Part shown: positions 2,934-23,374 of the stretch, one piece after another
Layout: each line of letters starts with the position of its first letter
Numbering within the stretch: position 1 is the first letter of the stretch
Origin: Shewanella sp. VB17
Lineage (GTDB): Bacteria; Pseudomonadota; Gammaproteobacteria; Enterobacterales; Shewanellaceae
Assembly: GCF_013248905.1 (NCBI RefSeq)
Contig: NZ_JABRVS010000001.1
Coordinates: 2,927,273 to 2,959,272 of the forward strand
Direction: 5' to 3'
DNA length: 32,000 nucleotides
The notes under the pieces: generated by a model
Databases searched by the model: none
Told to the model about the DNA's origin: nothing
Seen by the model: only the letters and a program-made list of their open reading frames with translations
Program-made: the position numbers and the translations under genes

Positions 2934-3461
2934 TATTACAACACTAAGTCTCTATTTTTGATAGCGATTTTTTTTGTATCAGTTTACCAGTTGGATCTTA
3001 TTGATGGCTAGATATCACTGAACCCTTGGCCATATTATAAAGCAAGAGCAATAGGTGCACCTGAGATAGCTAAATTGGTTAGCCTTCGAATGAAGCTTGA
3101 TTTCATTTTTACTCTTCTGGGGTAGATTTATTGGGTATTGGATGGTTTTTTAAGATCATACCTTCACTTTTATTTATCGCTTCCAGCGGGGTATGTGCAG
3201 ATACTTCTGTGGCTCGCTGCAAGTACGTCCTTGTGCTCGACGACAGCATCTGATGTGAATGGATTCACAAATGCCGTGATAACAGGGATGTTATAGAACG
3301 GCCTTGCCATCAACGGCCACTGCCGCATACACCCGTTATTTCAAGCAAACGATCTCTTCGATTTGGCTTTATCTGTGATTTATCTAGCAGAACGCTTAAG
3401 ACTCCCCATCAGTATTACAGACATATTCTAACCACGAGAATATGTTAAAGGTATTGCTGCC

Positions 3462-4800: not shown

Positions 4801-7800
4801 TTACGCAATTAATTCAACTTCTTTGCCATTAGTGTCCTTATTTAATTGCGCTGGAACACGAGGTTTACTGCCGATGAGCTTCTTTATATCTTCAATTGCT
4901 AAGTATAAACAAGGCATCAGTATTAAGGTGACCACGGTTGCAAACAGCACACCGAAGGCGAGGGAGGTCGCCATAGGGATCACCATTTTGGCTTGCATAC
5001 TGGTCTCTGTCATGATTGGCATTAAGCCGATGAAAGTGGTGAGTGATGTCAACATAATGGCTCTAAAGCGTCGACACCCCGCTTCAATCACTGCTGTTTT
5101 CATTACGATCCCCGCTTCCCTTGATTTGTTAATATGATCCACCATCACCAGAGAGTCATTGATGACGACTCCGGCTGCTGCGATGATGCCAAAGAGTGAC
5201 AATGCGCTGAGATCTATTCCCATGATCATATGACCCATAACAGAGCCTATAATACCAAATGGGATCACTGCCATGATCATCATAGGTTGAGAGTAAGATT
5301 TAAGCGGTATGGCCAACAAACTGTATATGATCAATAAGGAGATAATAAAGTCTCTTAATTGTGTCTTCGTGCTGTCAATTTGTTCTTGGATATTACCCGA
5401 CACTTCACTTTTTACTTTAGGATAGAGTGTTAATAATTGCGGTATAAAGTCATCGCGAATATCTTGAGCGAGTTTGAATGGCTCCGCTTGGGCGGCATCG
5501 ACAGAGGCCCAGACATTGATGGTGCGATTGCCATTTTCACGGCGAATATAACTGACTCCTTGTGTGACAGTGACATTGACGACGTCAGACAGAGGAACTT
5601 CAACGCCTTGGGGCGTGACTATCAATACATCAGAGACCTGAGCGATGGAGTTTCGTTGTGATTCTGGGTATCTGAGCATGACTTTTATTTCAGTCCCGTT
5701 ACGCAAAATTCTTTGTGCTTCAAGACCATAGAAGCTATTACTGACCTGAGAGGCAATATCAGCTAATGTAAGTCCTAAACCATAGGCTTGCGGTTTGAGT
5801 TGAAATTGTAATTCCTTCACACTAGATTGGCGGCTGTCGTTGATATCACTAACGCCTTTGAAGGTATTTAGCTTGTTTTTTAACGCGAGGGACGCAGCAA
5901 GTAATTGCGCTTCGTTCTTGCTTTCCAAGCGGAAGCTAATATCGCCATCATCACGCCCCCCGTCGAAGAGATTATCTTGAATTTCAAATGATTTTATTCC
6001 TGGGATCTGTGGTATAGCCTGACGCCAAAGTTCAGCTAATTGAAAAGTGTTCAGAGGTCTTATCTCTGGATCCACCAGTTTAGTCATGACTTTCGCTGAG
6101 GTGCGGCCTCCAAGTTCGACTTGCATGTCAGAGACCATGGCCTGATCATATTGCTCTTCAAGTTGTTTATCGACATCATAAATCGCTCTTTTGATCGCTA
6201 ATGCCGCCGTTAACGTGGCTTTTTCTGAGGCGTCGACATTCATCTCTATTTCGATTTGTGGGAAGTCATGGGGGATCTTGGGTTGACCGATAAAGCGAAC
6301 GAGACCACCTGCATAAAGGCCTGCACAGATAAGCATAAAACTGATAAAGACCATGATGGTGGTATAATGATATTTAACTGCTTTTTTGAGGGCAGGGCGA
6401 TAGACAGAGTTAATAAACAGGTGCAGAGTACGATCGACTCTATCTTGGATAGCATTGATAATATTTCTGAGCCAATCTAATGGGTTCTTTGAGCCTGGTT
6501 TGACGATGGTTTTTTGTTTCATTCTTGCTAAGTGGGCAGGCAAAATCAGCTTTGACTCTACCAATGAAAAAATAAGGCATAAAATAACGACAGTGCCTAT
6601 TGCTTTACCAAAAGCTGAGGTGGGTCCATCACTAAGGGTTAAAGGTGTAAAAGCGGCGATAGTGGTTAATACACCAAACGTGGCTGGTATAGCAACTTTC
6701 TTTACCCCGCGTATGACATTGTCTAAACTCTGACCATTTTTGTCACATTCATCATAGGCACTCTCTCCCATGACAATGGCGTCATCGACCACAATACCAA
6801 GGACCAATATAAAGGCAAACAGACTGATCACATTGACGGTGACATCTAACATGGGCATCGGCATCAATAGCAAGGCACCGAGGAAGCAAACTGGTAATCC
6901 CATCATGACCCAAAATGCTAATCGCACACGTAGGAAAAGTGCCAACATGATAAAGACTAAAATAGCCCCACTTTTCATGCTATCTAGCATGAGATCTAAC
7001 CGACCTTCGAGGTAATAGGACATATCTACCCAGGTTTCAAGTTTCAACCCTTCAGGTAAGATGTTCTGTTTTTTGGCAACGTACTTTTTCACGATATCAG
7101 CGACATCAGTCATGCTTTGATCGTTTGCAGCCCCGACAAAAAAAGTCACTGAGTTTTTGCCATTGAACTTAGAGTATTGAATGCCTTCCTCGAATCCATC
7201 AATGACAGTCGCAATATCTCCCAATAAGACATTGGTACCATCTTTTAAGGTAATTAACGGTAAATTTTCAAATTCATATCCGACATACGCTTGATTTTGG
7301 ACTCGCAAATTGATGTAACCCGTTTCTGCACGTATTTGTCCTGCAGACATGTTGCGTGAAAAGCCTTGTACCGCTTTAGCGACGTCGTTAAAATTCAGGC
7401 CAAATTCACGTAATTTATCTTTACTCACTTCAATGGCAATTTCATAATCCAGACCGCCATAGAAGTCTGTAATATTCACTGAAGGTAATTGCATCAACTC
7501 ATCGTGAATATTTTCGCCTAATTCTTTGAGCTGTCGGTGCGTTATATCACCATATAAGCTTATGTATAGCACTTCTTGTCGCAACTTAATACGCTCAACC
7601 TTAGGCAGCTCCATACCGTCTGGAAAGCTAGAAATGGAATCGATTTCAGATTTTATTTCATCCAGTACAACTTGTGGATCGTAGGAGTCTTCTATTCGAA
7701 AATACCCTGATGCTTGGCCTCGATTTGAATAAGTTATCACACGTTTAAGGCCTTGAACGCTTTCTAATGCTTCTTCAATTTTAATGGTGATCCCTTCTTC

Positions 7801-17587: not shown

Positions 17588-18194
17588 TTGTTTAATCATC
17601 GTTTGTTCTTCAGTGCAAGCTATTCCGATATCATTAGAGTACCAAGGTTTTTACCAAAGATTAAAACAGGTCAATAAGGGACATTATTCACAGGTAGAGC
17701 TGGTTTTTTCGGTACCAAATAAAGAAAAGTGCCGAATACAAAGTGGTAATATTAGCACTGAAAAAGAATCATTTCCTTTAATCATTACTAAAGAACAACG
17801 ACTATTTTTACCCTTTGATGAAAAATTAAAATCTGATAGAGCTTTGATTAATTTAGATATTCAAGGTGAAACGAAACATTGTAATATTGCGATGCAAGTC
17901 AGAGCAAAACAAACCAAAATGGAGTATACACACGGTGATATTGTTGAGATCCAAGCTGAAATGAATGCCATGCTGAGTGAAATGCAGGGGTTCCCTATGC
18001 GTTATTTCACAACCGATATTGCAGGTGTGAGTTTTTTATTCGAAGCTGACAGTGATGTTACGGTTAACATTGATGGTGTTGTACAGTCTGTTTCTGGTAA
18101 GTTGAGGCTTAGTCGAGCGCAAATTTTAACCTTAACCAACCTTAAACTATCGTTAAAACCTAAGGTTATAAGCCCTTGGACAAATGGTGACTAA
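17565..18194 (+). CDS. hypothetical secreted protein
   Basis: 209 aa with a signal peptide (MKRNLLFSCLIIVCSSVQA). Overlaps bax by 23 nt. No function recognised. Confidence 0.6.
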   Translation: MKRNLLFSCLIIVCSSVQAIPISLEYQGFYQRLKQVNKGHYSQVELVFSVPNKEKCRIQSGNISTEKESFPLIITKEQRLFLPFDEKLKSDRALINLDIQGETKHCNIAMQVRAKQTKMEYTHGDIVEIQAEMNAMLSEMQGFPMRYFTTDIAGVSFLFEADSDVTVNIDGVVQSVSGKLRLSRAQILTLTNLKLSLKPKVISPWTNGD

Positions 18195-20213: not shown

Positions 20214-20356
20214 ATTTTTGTCCCTTACTCATTTTATACCATTAATAATGGCGCATATCGCGTAAAATACATTGTTTTAGATCAAGTTAGCCCATATTGC
20301 TTAACTTGTTATACCATTGTTTTAAAATAAGTAAATTAATTATTGTCTCATTAATA

Positions 20357-21274
20357 TTAATTGATCACATACCAATGTTTACGAGGTATGAGCACCGGAT
20401 GTTTAATCGGTGTAGGCTCACGATATTGATAGTTCTTTAACGCATTAATAGTTACAGGTGTATTAAACAATATTATAGGCAATGTAGCATTAGTGCTTAA
20501 CATTCGTTTGCTGCGTGTATCACCAGTATTCTTACACCATATATCGATTAAAGGTTGAACTCGTGCAAATCTTATTTCAGTTATTTTTGCACTTGAAGAA
20601 ACTCGACTCATTAATTCTCTTTCTTTTTCGTAACGGGCTATGAGTTCTTCTTTATTTAAACCAAAGCATTCGAAGTTTTTTGCATTGATGCTGGATTTTA
20701 AAATATCAGCGGCAACATCATGTTTGACGTGATGTTGCATTTTTTTAGCGCGCCAATAAAAATTAACAGATGATATTTCATCGACGATTGTATCCATATA
20801 TTTCATTTTTCTGACGGCACTAAGAAGTACTAGATTAGGGATAAGTTCATGTAAGTTTTCATGGATGAGTTGTCGTTTCGCAAAACCCACTTTAATCGAA
20901 TCACTAAAAATGACTCGACGTTGGTTAACTTCATTGTTTAACTCGATGAATTCATCTTTCGATTTTTTAGGTAAAACAATTAATCCAGGAAAACGCTTTG
21001 CTAAATAGGTATTTTCATTGAATGCGTCAATTTTCAGTTGAGTTATTGCTTGCCGAGCATAACGCTTTGTCTGCTCGGTTATTTGCGTAAGCTCTTCCAT
21101 GACTTTAATATTGCTAGGAGTGGTATTTTCTTCACCTATTTTATTGGCGGGCAACGTGTACATACAAATATTAATCATATTGTCACAGACAAAAGTGGCT
21201 AGCTCAGAAAGGGCCTCTGCCAGTTGCAAGTGGTTGGTTTTTATATACGAATTCAGGGTAGCTCTATTGGTCAT
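20357..21274 (-). CDS. tus: DNA replication terminus site-binding protein Tus (divergent homologue)
   Basis: 305 aa vs 309 aa for E. coli Tus. Collinear blocks by eye: YTLPANK/FSLPEVK, KRFPGLIVL/VRLPGVLCY, HELIPNLVLLSAVRKM/HRHLPGLITLNAYRTL, EIRFARVQPLIDIWCK/KIKRPVKVQPIARVWYK, LPIILFN/PLIALIN, and C-terminus VLIPRKHWYVIN/LIIPRLHLYVAD. Confidence 0.85.
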   Translation of the reverse strand: MTNRATLNSYIKTNHLQLAEALSELATFVCDNMINICMYTLPANKIGEENTTPSNIKVMEELTQITEQTKRYARQAITQLKIDAFNENTYLAKRFPGLIVLPKKSKDEFIELNNEVNQRRVIFSDSIKVGFAKRQLIHENLHELIPNLVLLSAVRKMKYMDTIVDEISSVNFYWRAKKMQHHVKHDVAADILKSSINAKNFECFGLNKEELIARYEKERELMSRVSSSAKITEIRFARVQPLIDIWCKNTGDTRSKRMLSTNATLPIILFNTPVTINALKNYQYREPTPIKHPVLIPRKHWYVIN

Positions 21275-21303
21275 ATTAATTACGGCATACAGGCTAAAAA
21301 TTA

Positions 21304-21332
21304 AGTATCTACTTGATAAATAAAGCTGTCAA
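21304..21332 (-). promoter_or_regulatory. candidate tus promoter
   Basis: The minus strand reads TTGACA (21332-21327), 17-nt spacer, GATACT (21309-21304), about 30 nt upstream of the tus ATG. Confidence 0.4.
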
Positions 21333-21333
21333 A

Positions 21334-21354
21334 CGTTAATTTTCAAAATTAACG
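21334..21354. promoter_or_regulatory. 21-bp perfect palindrome immediately upstream of the tus -35 (operator candidate)
   Basis: CGTTAATTTT-C-AAAATTAACG: 10-bp arms around a single central base. Confidence 0.4.
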
Positions 21355-21496
21355 ATTAAATAACATTTAATGAGCATCCTAGCGATATCCTCGAAAATGA
21401 ACTCATCTACAGCATCTATATTACCTTTATTGGATGTTTTTCAAGCTACCGCAAAGTAAATATAACCAACTTATCCTCTCACTAAACCCAAAGCAT

Positions 21497-21512
21497 TTTT
21501 TTATGGTGACAC
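21497..21512. repeat. left copy of the 16-nt repeat TTTTTTATGGTG[A/T]CAC
   Basis: TTTTTTATGGTGACAC. Identical to the right copy except one base. Contains GTGAC (a matS-type half-site). Confidence 0.6.
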
Positions 21513-21539
21513 AGTTTAAATAGACTATTGATAAACTGC

Positions 21540-21577
21540 TCTTTATGCAACATAATTAGAGTTATGTTGCATAAAGA
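21540..21577. other. dif/lox-like palindromic candidate recombination site (16-6-16)
   Basis: TCTTTATGCAACATAA TTAGAG TTATGTTGCATAAAGA. All 16 arm positions pair and the spacer is asymmetric. The inner 11-nt arm TTATGTTGCAT matches the E. coli dif XerD arm TTATGTTAAAT at 9/11. The site can also be parsed as a 13-8-13 lox-type site. It lies in the divergent tus / recombinase-operon intergenic region. Confidence 0.6.
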
Positions 21578-21602
21578 CATAATGCCCGATGAGGCTATTG
21601 TA

Positions 21603-21618
21603 TTTTTTATGGTGTCAC
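21603..21618. repeat. right copy of the 16-nt repeat TTTTTTATGGTG[A/T]CAC
   Basis: TTTTTTATGGTGTCAC, 106 bp (about 10 helical turns) from the left copy. TGGTGTCACCA is itself an 11-bp palindrome containing GTCAC. Confidence 0.6.
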
Positions 21619-21666
21619 CATGATTGAGTGCTTGGCAAAATAATAGTATGAGATATAGGAATAGAA

Positions 21667-22215
21667 TTGTTAATAACACAAGAAAGAGTAGAACAAGATG
21701 ACAATTACACTCCGCCTAAATGGATTTATGATAACGGACGTACTGGGCGAGGTTATAACCTCAGAATGTTATCAATCACAGAGATAAAAATTTCTGCTGA
21801 TTTATTAAAAACATGGTTATCAAACATTAACATTTCAGATAATCCGTCATGGTATAAACCTTTTGCAAGTTCTACAGAATATCAATCCCATCAATCCTAT
21901 TTTTTACGTTTACTTAGAACGATTAAACAATGTGAAATTGAAGGTGAAGGTATATCAATACATGAAATGAACACCTTAAACCAAGAACTAAGCCGCATTT
22001 TTTCTGATGAGGGCTGGCGACACATGAAGCAAAAATTTAGTCAACAAGCAAAACGGAAGCGTAAAGCAAGACCAGAGATCTCGTCTTCACTACTTAGCAA
22101 GCTTCACCATGTTAAGACGACTCAAGGTTTTACTAGCCTTGATGAGGTCATTGATGAATTATTGTCTTTTTACCATGATAATCAAAATTCAAATGGTGCA
22201 TGTTGTGAAAAATAA
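21667..22215 (+). CDS. hypothetical DNA-binding protein with C-terminal ribbon-helix-helix (MatP-like linker/RHH)
   Basis: 182 aa. TTG start with AGGA 6 nt upstream. Basic patch AKRKRKAR followed by a beta-alpha-alpha pattern: PEISSS-LLSKLHHVKTTQG-FTSLDEVIDELLSFY. GWRHMKQ...KRKRK resembles MatP GWIDKHM..RMKQTIRARRKRH (E. coli sequence recalled from memory). Confidence 0.6.
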   Translation: MLITQERVEQDDNYTPPKWIYDNGRTGRGYNLRMLSITEIKISADLLKTWLSNINISDNPSWYKPFASSTEYQSHQSYFLRLLRTIKQCEIEGEGISIHEMNTLNQELSRIFSDEGWRHMKQKFSQQAKRKRKARPEISSSLLSKLHHVKTTQGFTSLDEVIDELLSFYHDNQNSNGACCEK

Positions 22216-23323
22216 TACTGAACTGACGCCATCTTATGGCGATTTACCGCAATCCATCGCACCAACATCAATTCAAGAATCACTGTTAGACACACGTAGT
22301 TTACTTGAAAAACGCCTCAAATCACAGTTGGCTTTATCCTCAGATCTGGTTGATCAAGATTTAGTACGATTACTCATTAAACATTTACTGGCAGACTTTG
22401 CGAAAAATGATAGCGGTTTATCAGATAACACCATTAAGACATTGTTTATCTATTGGCAAAGTTTTGAATTGTGGTGTCACAAACATCAATGTACTTCACT
22501 ACCAGCATCGGCGACCACATTTGTCGACTACATGAATGATAGAAAGTCAGCGGTAAAAATGAATACCTTAAGCCAATATCGCTGGGCCGTAAGTAAAATT
22601 CACTTAGCTGCCGGATTACCTTCACCCTGTCATACTCAAAAATCAATTGATGTAGTGGGCGGGATCAGAAAACAAAAAATCAGATCAAGCGAACTTGTCA
22701 CACAAGCAAGTCCATTTCGCAGTTCACACTGTGATGCGCTAATTGATTTGTGGATTGGATCTGGAACACCTTTGCAATATAGAAATTTAGCGATAATGGT
22801 AACGGCGTATGAAACGATGATGCGTGAAAGTGAGTTAGCACGAATTGAGTTAGCGCATATAAGTTATCAATCAGATGGTCGTGCGACTTTGCTTATTCCT
22901 TTCACAAAAACAAATATATCTGGTGATCCCGATACCGTCATGTTGAGTCGACAATGTGTTAAAATTATAAATAATTATTTGTCTCATACGGTGAATAAGT
23001 CTAATTTTCTATTTAAGAAAATGACACGAAATGGCAAGCCAGCACAACACAACGGTCCTATTTCTCGTTACACTGTCGACAGGGTTTTTAAACGTGCCTT
23101 TAATGATTTATGTACAAAAAATATAAATTTAACTCATGAAATAGCACCATGGTCTGGGCACAGTGCTCGAGTTGGAGCTTGTCAGGATCTATTAAGTGCT
23201 GGCTATTCTATTCTCGAAGTTCAGCAAGCGGGTCGCTGGGCATCAAGTGAAATGGTTTATCGTTATGGTAGAAATATATTAGCAAAAGAATCTGCAATGG
23301 CCAAAGCACGTTGGGGACGCTAA
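22109..23323 (+). CDS. Cre-family tyrosine site-specific recombinase
   Basis: WSGHSARVGACQDLLSAGYSILEVQQAGRWASSEMVYRYGRN vs P1 Cre WSGHSARVGAARDMARAGVSIPEIMQAGGWTNVNIVMNYIRN. RNLAIMVTAYETMMRESELARI vs Cre RNLAFLGIAYNTLLRIAEIARI. Catalytic R239 K267 H351 R354 W377 Y386 (maximal-ORF numbering). The true start is probably internal: ATG 22154 has GAGG 7 nt upstream, and ATG 22193 is the other candidate. Overlaps the upstream gene. Confidence 0.85.
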   Translation: MLRRLKVLLALMRSLMNYCLFTMIIKIQMVHVVKNNTELTPSYGDLPQSIAPTSIQESLLDTRSLLEKRLKSQLALSSDLVDQDLVRLLIKHLLADFAKNDSGLSDNTIKTLFIYWQSFELWCHKHQCTSLPASATTFVDYMNDRKSAVKMNTLSQYRWAVSKIHLAAGLPSPCHTQKSIDVVGGIRKQKIRSSELVTQASPFRSSHCDALIDLWIGSGTPLQYRNLAIMVTAYETMMRESELARIELAHISYQSDGRATLLIPFTKTNISGDPDTVMLSRQCVKIINNYLSHTVNKSNFLFKKMTRNGKPAQHNGPISRYTVDRVFKRAFNDLCTKNINLTHEIAPWSGHSARVGACQDLLSAGYSILEVQQAGRWASSEMVYRYGRNILAKESAMAKARWGR

Positions 23324-23328
23324 CAATA

Positions 23329-23365
23329 AATACAGATGCAGCATCGATCCTTTTGCATCTGTATT
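23329..23365. terminator. bidirectional terminator between the recombinase gene and fnr
   Basis: AATACAGATGCA / TGCATCTGTATT 12-bp stem with a 13-nt loop. Confidence 0.6.
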
Positions 23366-23374
23366 AACGGTTTA

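Follow-up and report, generated by a model that had tools for sequence, protein, structure and literature searches.

Phage P1 resolves dimers of its plasmid prophage via Cre/loxP, a system in which the site adjoins the recombinase gene and consists of two 13-bp arms, ending in ATA, around an 8-bp spacer (13-8-13). Two further systems, SCre/SloxP of Shewanella sp. ANA-3 plasmid 1 and VCre/VloxP of Vibrio sp. 0908 plasmid p0908, have been validated as 13-8-13 systems whose sites were predicted from a palindrome close to the gene (PMC3082901); for SCre and VCre, arm binding and recombination of two site copies independently of host factors have been shown. A single recombinase encoded beside its own site is also the arrangement of XerS/difSL and XerH/difH, whose sites serve chromosome dimer resolution at the terminus (PMC2731167). 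A tus-vicinal Ter site has been described as general in tus-bearing bacteria, and in E. coli TerB lies upstream of tus and reads toward it. Here, we analyzed a locus on the chromosome of Shewanella sp. VB17 in which a palindrome lies between a tus homolog and a recombinase gene. From sequence comparison, we consider it very likely that this palindrome is the lox-type core target of the adjacent Cre-family recombinase, within a plasmid-derived module.

The window, i.e., the whole 32-kb stretch of DNA that was analyzed, has the gene order ttcA, uspE, tus homolog, the palindrome-bearing intergenic region (392 bp), orfX, recombinase, fnr and cco genes (Table 1). An earlier note on this DNA had described a perfect 16-6-16 palindrome with an asymmetric center, placed between divergent genes. 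When the sequence was re-read, positions 21540-21577 proved to be TCTTTATGCAACATAA-TTAGAG-TTATGTTGCATAAAGA, with 16/16 arm positions pairing (100% complementarity) and a non-palindromic 6-nt center; the placement was likewise confirmed, with tus on the minus strand and orfX plus the recombinase gene on the plus strand. In 30 Markov-1 simulated sequences of 32 kb each, the longest perfect inverted repeat with a spacer of 4-10 nt measured 7-11 nt, compared to the 16 nt observed; the palindrome is real and far above chance expectation. Read as 13-8-13, positions 21542-21575 are TTTATGCAACATA / ATTAGAGT / TATGTTGCATAAA, i.e., 13-bp arms around an 8-bp asymmetric spacer. The closest relatives keep only this 14-6-14 (=13-8-13) part of the VB17 16-6-16, and since no more than 14 bp per arm are conserved, the two further base pairs at the outer end of each arm in VB17 are probably incidental.

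Table 1. Features of the VB17 locus and corresponding Ter-like cores of three related loci (coordinates refer to the window unless a locus is named)
Feature	Position	Strand	Remarks
Inserted module (tus, Ter-like site, lox cassette, orfX, recombinase)	20214..23374	.	~3.1 kb between uspE and fnr
tus homolog (replication terminus site-binding protein)	20357..21274	-	PF05472, E=2.2e-22, full length
Ter-like site AGCCTGTATGCCGTAATTAATAT	21273..21295	-	abuts tus start codon, reads toward tus
Left box ATGGTGACACAGT	21503..21515	.	imperfect copy of 13-bp motif ~ATGGTGNCACCAT; 49.5 bp from lox center
Putative lox-type core site	21540..21577	.	perfect 16-6-16; conserved part 21542-21575 = 14-6-14
Asymmetric 6-bp center TTAGAG	21556..21561	+	presumed strand-exchange (overlap) region
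Right box ATGGTGTCACCAT	21609..21621	.	13-bp palindrome; 56.5 bp from lox center
orfX	21667..22215	+	182 aa, TTG start; P0104; uncharacterized
Cre-family tyrosine recombinase	22193..23323	+	376 aa from ATG 22193; PF00589
Vicinal Ter-like cores	L001 3228-3240; L081 4000-4012; L005 3799-3811		TerB-like orientation to tus

The recombinase gene lies 0.6 kb from the palindrome; the NCBI annotation gives it 372 aa from a GTG start at 22205. When the protein was compared with solved structures, Cre alone was matched (E=1.7e-36, Cre residues 25-337), and each of the catalytic residues (R, E, K, H-x-x-R, W and Y) had its aligned counterpart in Cre; judged from this alignment, the enzyme looks catalytically intact. 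Its sequence is 100% identical to that of a Shewanella sp. VB17 protein. It differs from Cre in its overall identity, roughly 28% by a by-eye estimate from the alignment, and in an N-terminal extension of ~40 aa. In a plasmid comparison, identity was 67.8% to the gene product of S. aestuarii plasmid pPN3F2_1, 38.9% to SCre and 39.2% to VCre. Assignment to the Xer proteins was rejected because the NCBIfam scores, 23 bits for XerD (cut-off 329.6), 20.9 for XerC (335) and 33.6 for XerA (220), i.e., 21-34 bits against cut-offs of 220-335, fall far short. The single adjacent recombinase, which the earlier note had taken to be the likely partner of the site, is thus a Cre-family enzyme, and the layout of site plus gene recurs across the SCre/VCre family.

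We examined this recurrence in relatives of the recombinase, scanning one genome per species; 80 loci encoding such relatives were obtained, and 27 of them were examined. In 20 of the 27 loci, the inverted repeat that scored highest as 14-6-14 anywhere in the 6-17 kb of the locus sits 0-1100 bp upstream of the recombinase gene. The score was 12-14 of 14 in real loci, compared to 10-11 of 14 in shuffled loci, and the scan also picked up SloxP and VloxP, both already published. Conservation in relatives that keep the recombinase, which the earlier note had made a touchstone of its reading, was therefore found in these 20 loci, and the lox-type 13-8-13 geometry it had proposed recurs upstream of related recombinases including those of SloxP and VloxP. 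The arm sequences themselves are clade-specific (for example, TTATGCAAAGTTAG, TTATCAGGGGTAAA, TTCTCGGAAATTGA, TTATATCAACCTAT and TTGACGGACATATA), with the geometry and the inner A...T constant. In the three closest relatives, whose recombinases are 67-71% identical to that of VB17, the 14-bp arms are essentially unchanged and the central bases alone vary: the centers in this closest clade are TTAGAG, TTAGCA and TTACAG, with TTAGCC in a metagenomic relative (L089), and the S. aestuarii center, TTACAG, is also that of SloxP. Such constant arms around a variable center make sense for a recombination site, because the strand-exchange spacer needs only to match its partner. Since tus is present in just four of the recombinase loci, and palindrome and recombinase also occur where it is absent, it is with the recombinase, rather than with Tus, that the palindrome travels. 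On the 231-kb S. aestuarii plasmid, the site occurs once.

Exact copies of the arms, ATGCAACATAA-N6-TTATGTTGCAT (11-6-11), were also found in 28 metagenomic and two viral contigs (L086-L115), of which only L105, and L089 in part, encode the recombinase and orfX. Neither tblastn nor a profile made from the recombinase alignment detected a related recombinase in the DNA covered for the ~26 other arm-bearing contigs, in many cases a short stretch, so that such a gene may lie further away. Because of these ~26 further contigs without a detected recombinase, the arm sequence is not unique to the VB17-type system; in them, the arms may be sites that other tyrosine recombinases use or inverted repeats with no relation to this system, and this search speaks neither for nor against the lox reading. 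Neighbors of the arms in these contigs include GmrSD, Fic, CzcD-like or Xer-like genes, and four contigs of differing context share the center (A/C)GGACG.

Together, a Cre-family recombinase with apparently intact catalytic residues nearby, two 13-bp inverted repeats around an asymmetric 8-bp spacer and a site that travels with its recombinase while the arms change from clade to clade (20/27 loci) would place the VB17 system among those of the Cre/lox kind, closest to SCre/SloxP, in a context that appears unusual and partly new. SCre and the VB17 enzyme belong to the same family, their identity extending over 97% of the protein; SloxP shares the 13-8-13 layout and the inner arms ...ATAA-N6-TTAT..., its center is one base off TTAGAG, and an orfX homolog overlaps the start of SCre. 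On the other hand, the arms have only ~7 of 13 bases in common, which makes the VB17 site and SloxP probably heterospecific. SloxP contains two arm mismatches, is 4.2 kb away from SCre and has neither a tus beside it nor any obvious flanking boxes, and SCre is plasmid-borne whereas the VB17 copy is chromosomal. VCre resembles the VB17 system in its 14-6-14 site 435 bp upstream of the gene and in a small overlapping upstream ORF, but this ORF has no detectable kinship to orfX, the VloxP arms end in GAA/TTC, and boxes and tus are absent. Nor does loxP have anything that corresponds to the upstream orfX or to the flanking boxes. XerS and XerH, in turn, are Xer-type and clade-wide chromosomal features, whereas the VB17 enzyme is Cre-type, patchy in distribution and mostly on plasmids, and its system sits in a genus with a canonical dif.

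The palindrome is flanked by two boxes of the 13-bp motif, which occur at the same positions in seven loci (VB17, L001, L105, L081, L002, L005 and L006) drawn from two recombinase clades with about 42% identity between them. Box-to-box spacing is ~106 bp in VB17, L001, L002 and L005, and the asymmetry of the arrangement (49.5 vs. 56.5 bp) flips along with the orientation of the spacer. In the S. algicola clade, the entire box-lox-box cassette is inverted relative to the genes, an argument that conservation concerns a ~125-bp unit and not a promoter layout. The conserved flanking boxes are a new observation; they are candidate accessory or operator sites. Their form, TGGT-N-ACCA, resembles that of GntR-type operators and is loosely like matS.

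Between the right box and the recombinase gene lies orfX, whose stop overlaps the recombinase start. Homologs of orfX precede the recombinase gene in 10 loci, and one of them is the ORF ahead of SCre. The family is very rare and unannotated, its members always directly preceding these recombinase genes and overlapping their start, with seven and 34 relatives in two large protein databases (the 34 among 1.84 billion proteins). The Pfam, PHROG and NCBIfam searches matched orfX to no family, a single-sequence search found only orfX itself, and its profile had no match among PDB sequences. The AF2 model (pLDDT 75) is helical, with a terminal segment resembling strand-helix-helix, and a Foldseek search of this model against the PDB gave nothing significant, the top match being MatP (E=0.31) and the hints of a TCP/RHH-like fold weak. 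MatP is the RHH protein of the Ter macrodomain. We hypothesize from the model that the C-terminal ~45 aa of orfX form an RHH-like DNA-binding motif, and we predict that it binds the flanking boxes. This rare upstream gene, co-transcribed with the recombinase gene, is a new observation. Since VCre and SCre function without an orfX-type partner in heterologous cells (PMC3082901), any role of orfX would be regulatory or concern selectivity.

On the other side of the palindrome, tus is accompanied by a site of its own. The VB17 Tus is a distant homolog, scoring under the NCBIfam equivalog cut-offs, and tus stands beside the same module in L001, L005 and the S. aestuarii plasmid (L081). The Ter-like element at 21273-21295 (minus strand; also written AGCCTGTATGCCGTAATTAAT) shares with TerB its place immediately upstream of tus and its orientation toward it. 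Its core, GTATGNNGTAA(C), is found at the same place in 4/4 tus-bearing loci with G6 kept (core GTATGNNGTAAC), and the window contains one exact match compared to 0.34 expected. It differs from TerB at core positions 11-12, which are CC (or AG, CG) in the VB17 type and TT in Ter, and in abutting the start codon, from which TerB is 10 bp away. A search of the window for E. coli Ter sites found none, and a second VB17 candidate, at 22193-22215, was rejected as too divergent. The suggestion in the earlier note that Tus might bind the palindrome has thus been overtaken: the predicted Tus-binding site, judging by this conservation, is 21273-21295 and not the palindrome.

In Shewanella sp. UCD-KL12 (L001), a second Ter-like site, at 7698-7710 on the plus strand, has a core 13/13 identical to that of VB17 and lies 4.46 kb from the site at 3228-3240 on the minus strand; the pair, in fork-trap orientation, brackets lox, orfX, the recombinase gene and a DUF2913 gene. 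Several observations concern Tus and Ter elsewhere. Inside its recombinase gene, L005 has an E. coli-like Ter core, GGATGTTGTAACT, at 6477 of the plus strand. In pPN3F2_1 (NZ_CP050314.1, L081 3939-4019), the annotated tus start appears too short, and a TTG directly after the Ter-like site yields the N-terminus MSNRATLNSY, matching VB17 Tus; the same plasmid carries a second tus copy (record 168048-168959) whose product is 52.6% identical to VB17 Tus. In the plasmid collection, tus homologs are annotated on 1320 records, mainly large Klebsiella plasmids, and S. xiamenensis plasmids have both tus and a Cre-like recombinase, far apart. Within the VB17 intergenic region, a second palindrome, AAACGTTAATTTT-C-AAAATTAACGATT at 21331-21357, overlaps TTGACA (21332-21327), which is the -35 hexamer of the promoter-like site that scores best for tus, and may be a regulatory site.

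We also considered how the module came to lie between uspE and fnr. In E. coli, these two genes are neighbors with a gap of 151 bp, and the G+C content of the module is 0.34-0.36, compared to 0.40-0.42 in the flanks; for both reasons, the 3.1 kb in VB17 is an insertion. Direct or inverted repeats were sought as integration scars at both ends of the island (20.2 and 23.3 kb), and none of at least 8 bp was found. The same block is present on S. aestuarii plasmid pPN3F2_1, beside conjugation genes, and on a syntenic contig of Shewanella sp. UCD-KL12. VB17 retains only tus and the orfX-recombinase pair, with the Ter-like site and the lox cassette in between, and by this comparison its module appears to be a reduced copy of a Shewanella megaplasmid-type module; it may be a decaying plasmid remnant. 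Over the 32 kb examined, the cumulative G-C apex falls at 18,117, 3.4 kb from the palindrome, and the third-position skew of minus-strand genes is +0.13 to +0.37 left of the apex and -0.09 to +0.17 right of it. Apex and third-position skew together suggest that replication forks converge inside the window, and the position of the module near the local GC-skew apex is consistent with a terminus location; KOPS, of which the plus strand has two and the minus strand none, are too few to use. The chromosome does not tolerate an ectopic non-permissive Ter at other positions, which could explain the survival of the module at this one. Between the convergent recombinase gene and fnr, an inverted repeat, ATACAGATGCA / TGCATCTGTAT, with a 14-nt loop at 23330-23365 is probably their shared terminator; a simple terminator scan did not call it.

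Several other explanations of the palindrome have to be weighed against a lox-type site. It might be mainly an operator of the divergent tus and orfX-recombinase promoters, bound by orfX or by an autorepressing recombinase and serving no recombination. Its place in a divergent intergenic region would suit this, palindromes are typical of operators, and a sigma-70-like TTGATA-17-CATAAT (21528-21556) has its -10 hexamer inside the left arm, with a similar TTGAAA-17-CATAAT in L001. However, the promoter scan returned 12 sites compared to 14.6 in shuffled sequence, the same type of palindrome stands beside recombinases without orfX, VloxP and SloxP are proven recombination sites, the inverted cassette of the S. 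algicola clade argues against a fixed promoter-operator role, and the flanking boxes are better operator candidates. We regard a purely regulatory palindrome as distinctly unlikely; the operator and recombination-site roles are not exclusive. That the adjacent Tus homolog binds the palindrome, as a Ter-type site or as its operator, is extremely improbable. E. coli TerB does lie within the tus promoter region, and the arm TATGTTGCATAAAG is superficially like Ter TATGTTGTAACTAAAG, but this alignment takes a 2-nt gap, so that the palindrome does not have the asymmetric ~23-bp form with G6 and a GTTGTAAC-type core. Moreover, members of the palindrome family are found in many loci that lack tus, and a different asymmetric element holds the TerB position in every tus-bearing locus.

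The earlier note had also set the palindrome, parsed as 11-6-11, beside E. coli dif. Its arithmetic stands, the right arm matching the XerD arm at 9/11 with the inner CATAA/TTATG in common, but the analogy does not: the left arm matches the XerC arm at 5/11 and the center at 1/6, and 13/28 positions mismatch both E. coli dif and the canonical gamma-proteobacterial dif of S. oneidensis, ACTGCGCACAATGTATATTATGTTAAAT. The likeness is confined to the TTATG inner arm and a few bases, and relatives, with arms such as TTATGCAAAGT, TTATCAGGGG and TTCTCGGAAAT, have lost it. Identity as a dif site was rejected on these mismatches to Shewanella dif and on the loss in relatives. Somewhat in favor of a dif-like site for host XerCD, or of an Xer-exploiting element, that would be the classical dimer-resolution site of the chromosome, the locus is near the local GC-skew apex, and a search of the 32-kb window for canonical dif (E. 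coli, V. cholerae and S. oneidensis) found none. Yet where XerCD/dif has distinct arms near a clade consensus and a sequence kept regardless of its neighbors, here both arms are identical, hence there is no XerC-type arm, and the site follows its recombinase even onto plasmids; nor is that recombinase of the Xer family, as an XerS/XerH-type system would have it. This explanation is accordingly very improbable. A further alternative is a structural hairpin, whether a DNA cruciform or, in RNA, a terminator or attenuator, or else a REP/MITE repeat without a dedicated protein partner. The predicted RNA fold of the palindrome is stable (-21.6 kcal/mol, z=-5.9), and the same arms turn up in unrelated metagenomic contexts. 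A terminator role, already doubted in the earlier note, is contradicted by the lack of a U-tract, the AT-rich stem and the position between divergent gene starts, and an Rfam scan of the inserted island gave no match. As for a repeat, a copy count, which the note had proposed genome-wide, found the arm once in the 32-kb window, up to three mismatches being tolerated, and the site is likewise single in the 231-kb plasmid. Finally, from one recombinase clade to the next the arms change but geometry and position do not, which points to a site bound by a protein, and we see only the slimmest chance for a hairpin or repeat.

If the palindrome is a lox-type site, then by analogy with Cre/loxP, SCre/SloxP and VCre/VloxP, one recombinase monomer would bind each arm, two sites would synapse in a tetramer, and the strands would be cut 6 bp apart within the spacer and then exchanged, with the asymmetric center TTAGAG setting the polarity of the site. 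The site would act as part of the ~125-bp cassette with its two flanking 13-bp palindromic boxes. On Shewanella megaplasmids, the module would most likely resolve replicon multimers where replication ends, and its most economical reading is that of a plasmid termination and multimer-resolution module. We infer binding, the cleavage positions, dimer resolution and any role of the boxes, orfX or Tus. Earlier nominations of lox-like sites from a palindrome and its proximity to a gene were right about half the time, and those were not backed by ortholog conservation; half-site position 7 is C here, whereas T was noted at this position for the sites found active in that study. It is possible that the palindrome resolves dimers of the VB17 chromosome, a function that is uncertain because a single copy has no partner except its sister or dimer copy.

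A wider reading, which we hold to be speculative and on balance unlikely, is that the module constitutes a transferable "terminus kit," in which a Tus/Ter barrier would end replication beside a Cre-type dimer-resolution site, orfX on phased boxes would add the resolution selectivity that Cre lacks, and the whole would have been captured at the VB17 terminus. Were this true, VB17 could have an XerCD/dif-independent or back-up route of chromosome dimer resolution and a shifted meeting point of its forks. We know of no study of the natural roles of the SCre/VCre family. Since the arms share only ~7 of 13 bases with SloxP, the VB17 enzyme and its site are probably a new orthogonal recombinase/site pair for genome engineering, for which natural spacer variants are already known. 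The box-lox-box cassette, the rare partner gene and the repeated linkage to a plasmid-type Tus/Ter suggest an arrangement more elaborate than Cre/loxP. They also suggest that, on some large plasmids, fork arrest and multimer resolution are coupled, much as they are on chromosomes through Ter and dif, and the copy at the apparent chromosomal terminus of VB17 would be a natural test of such a kit on a chromosome.
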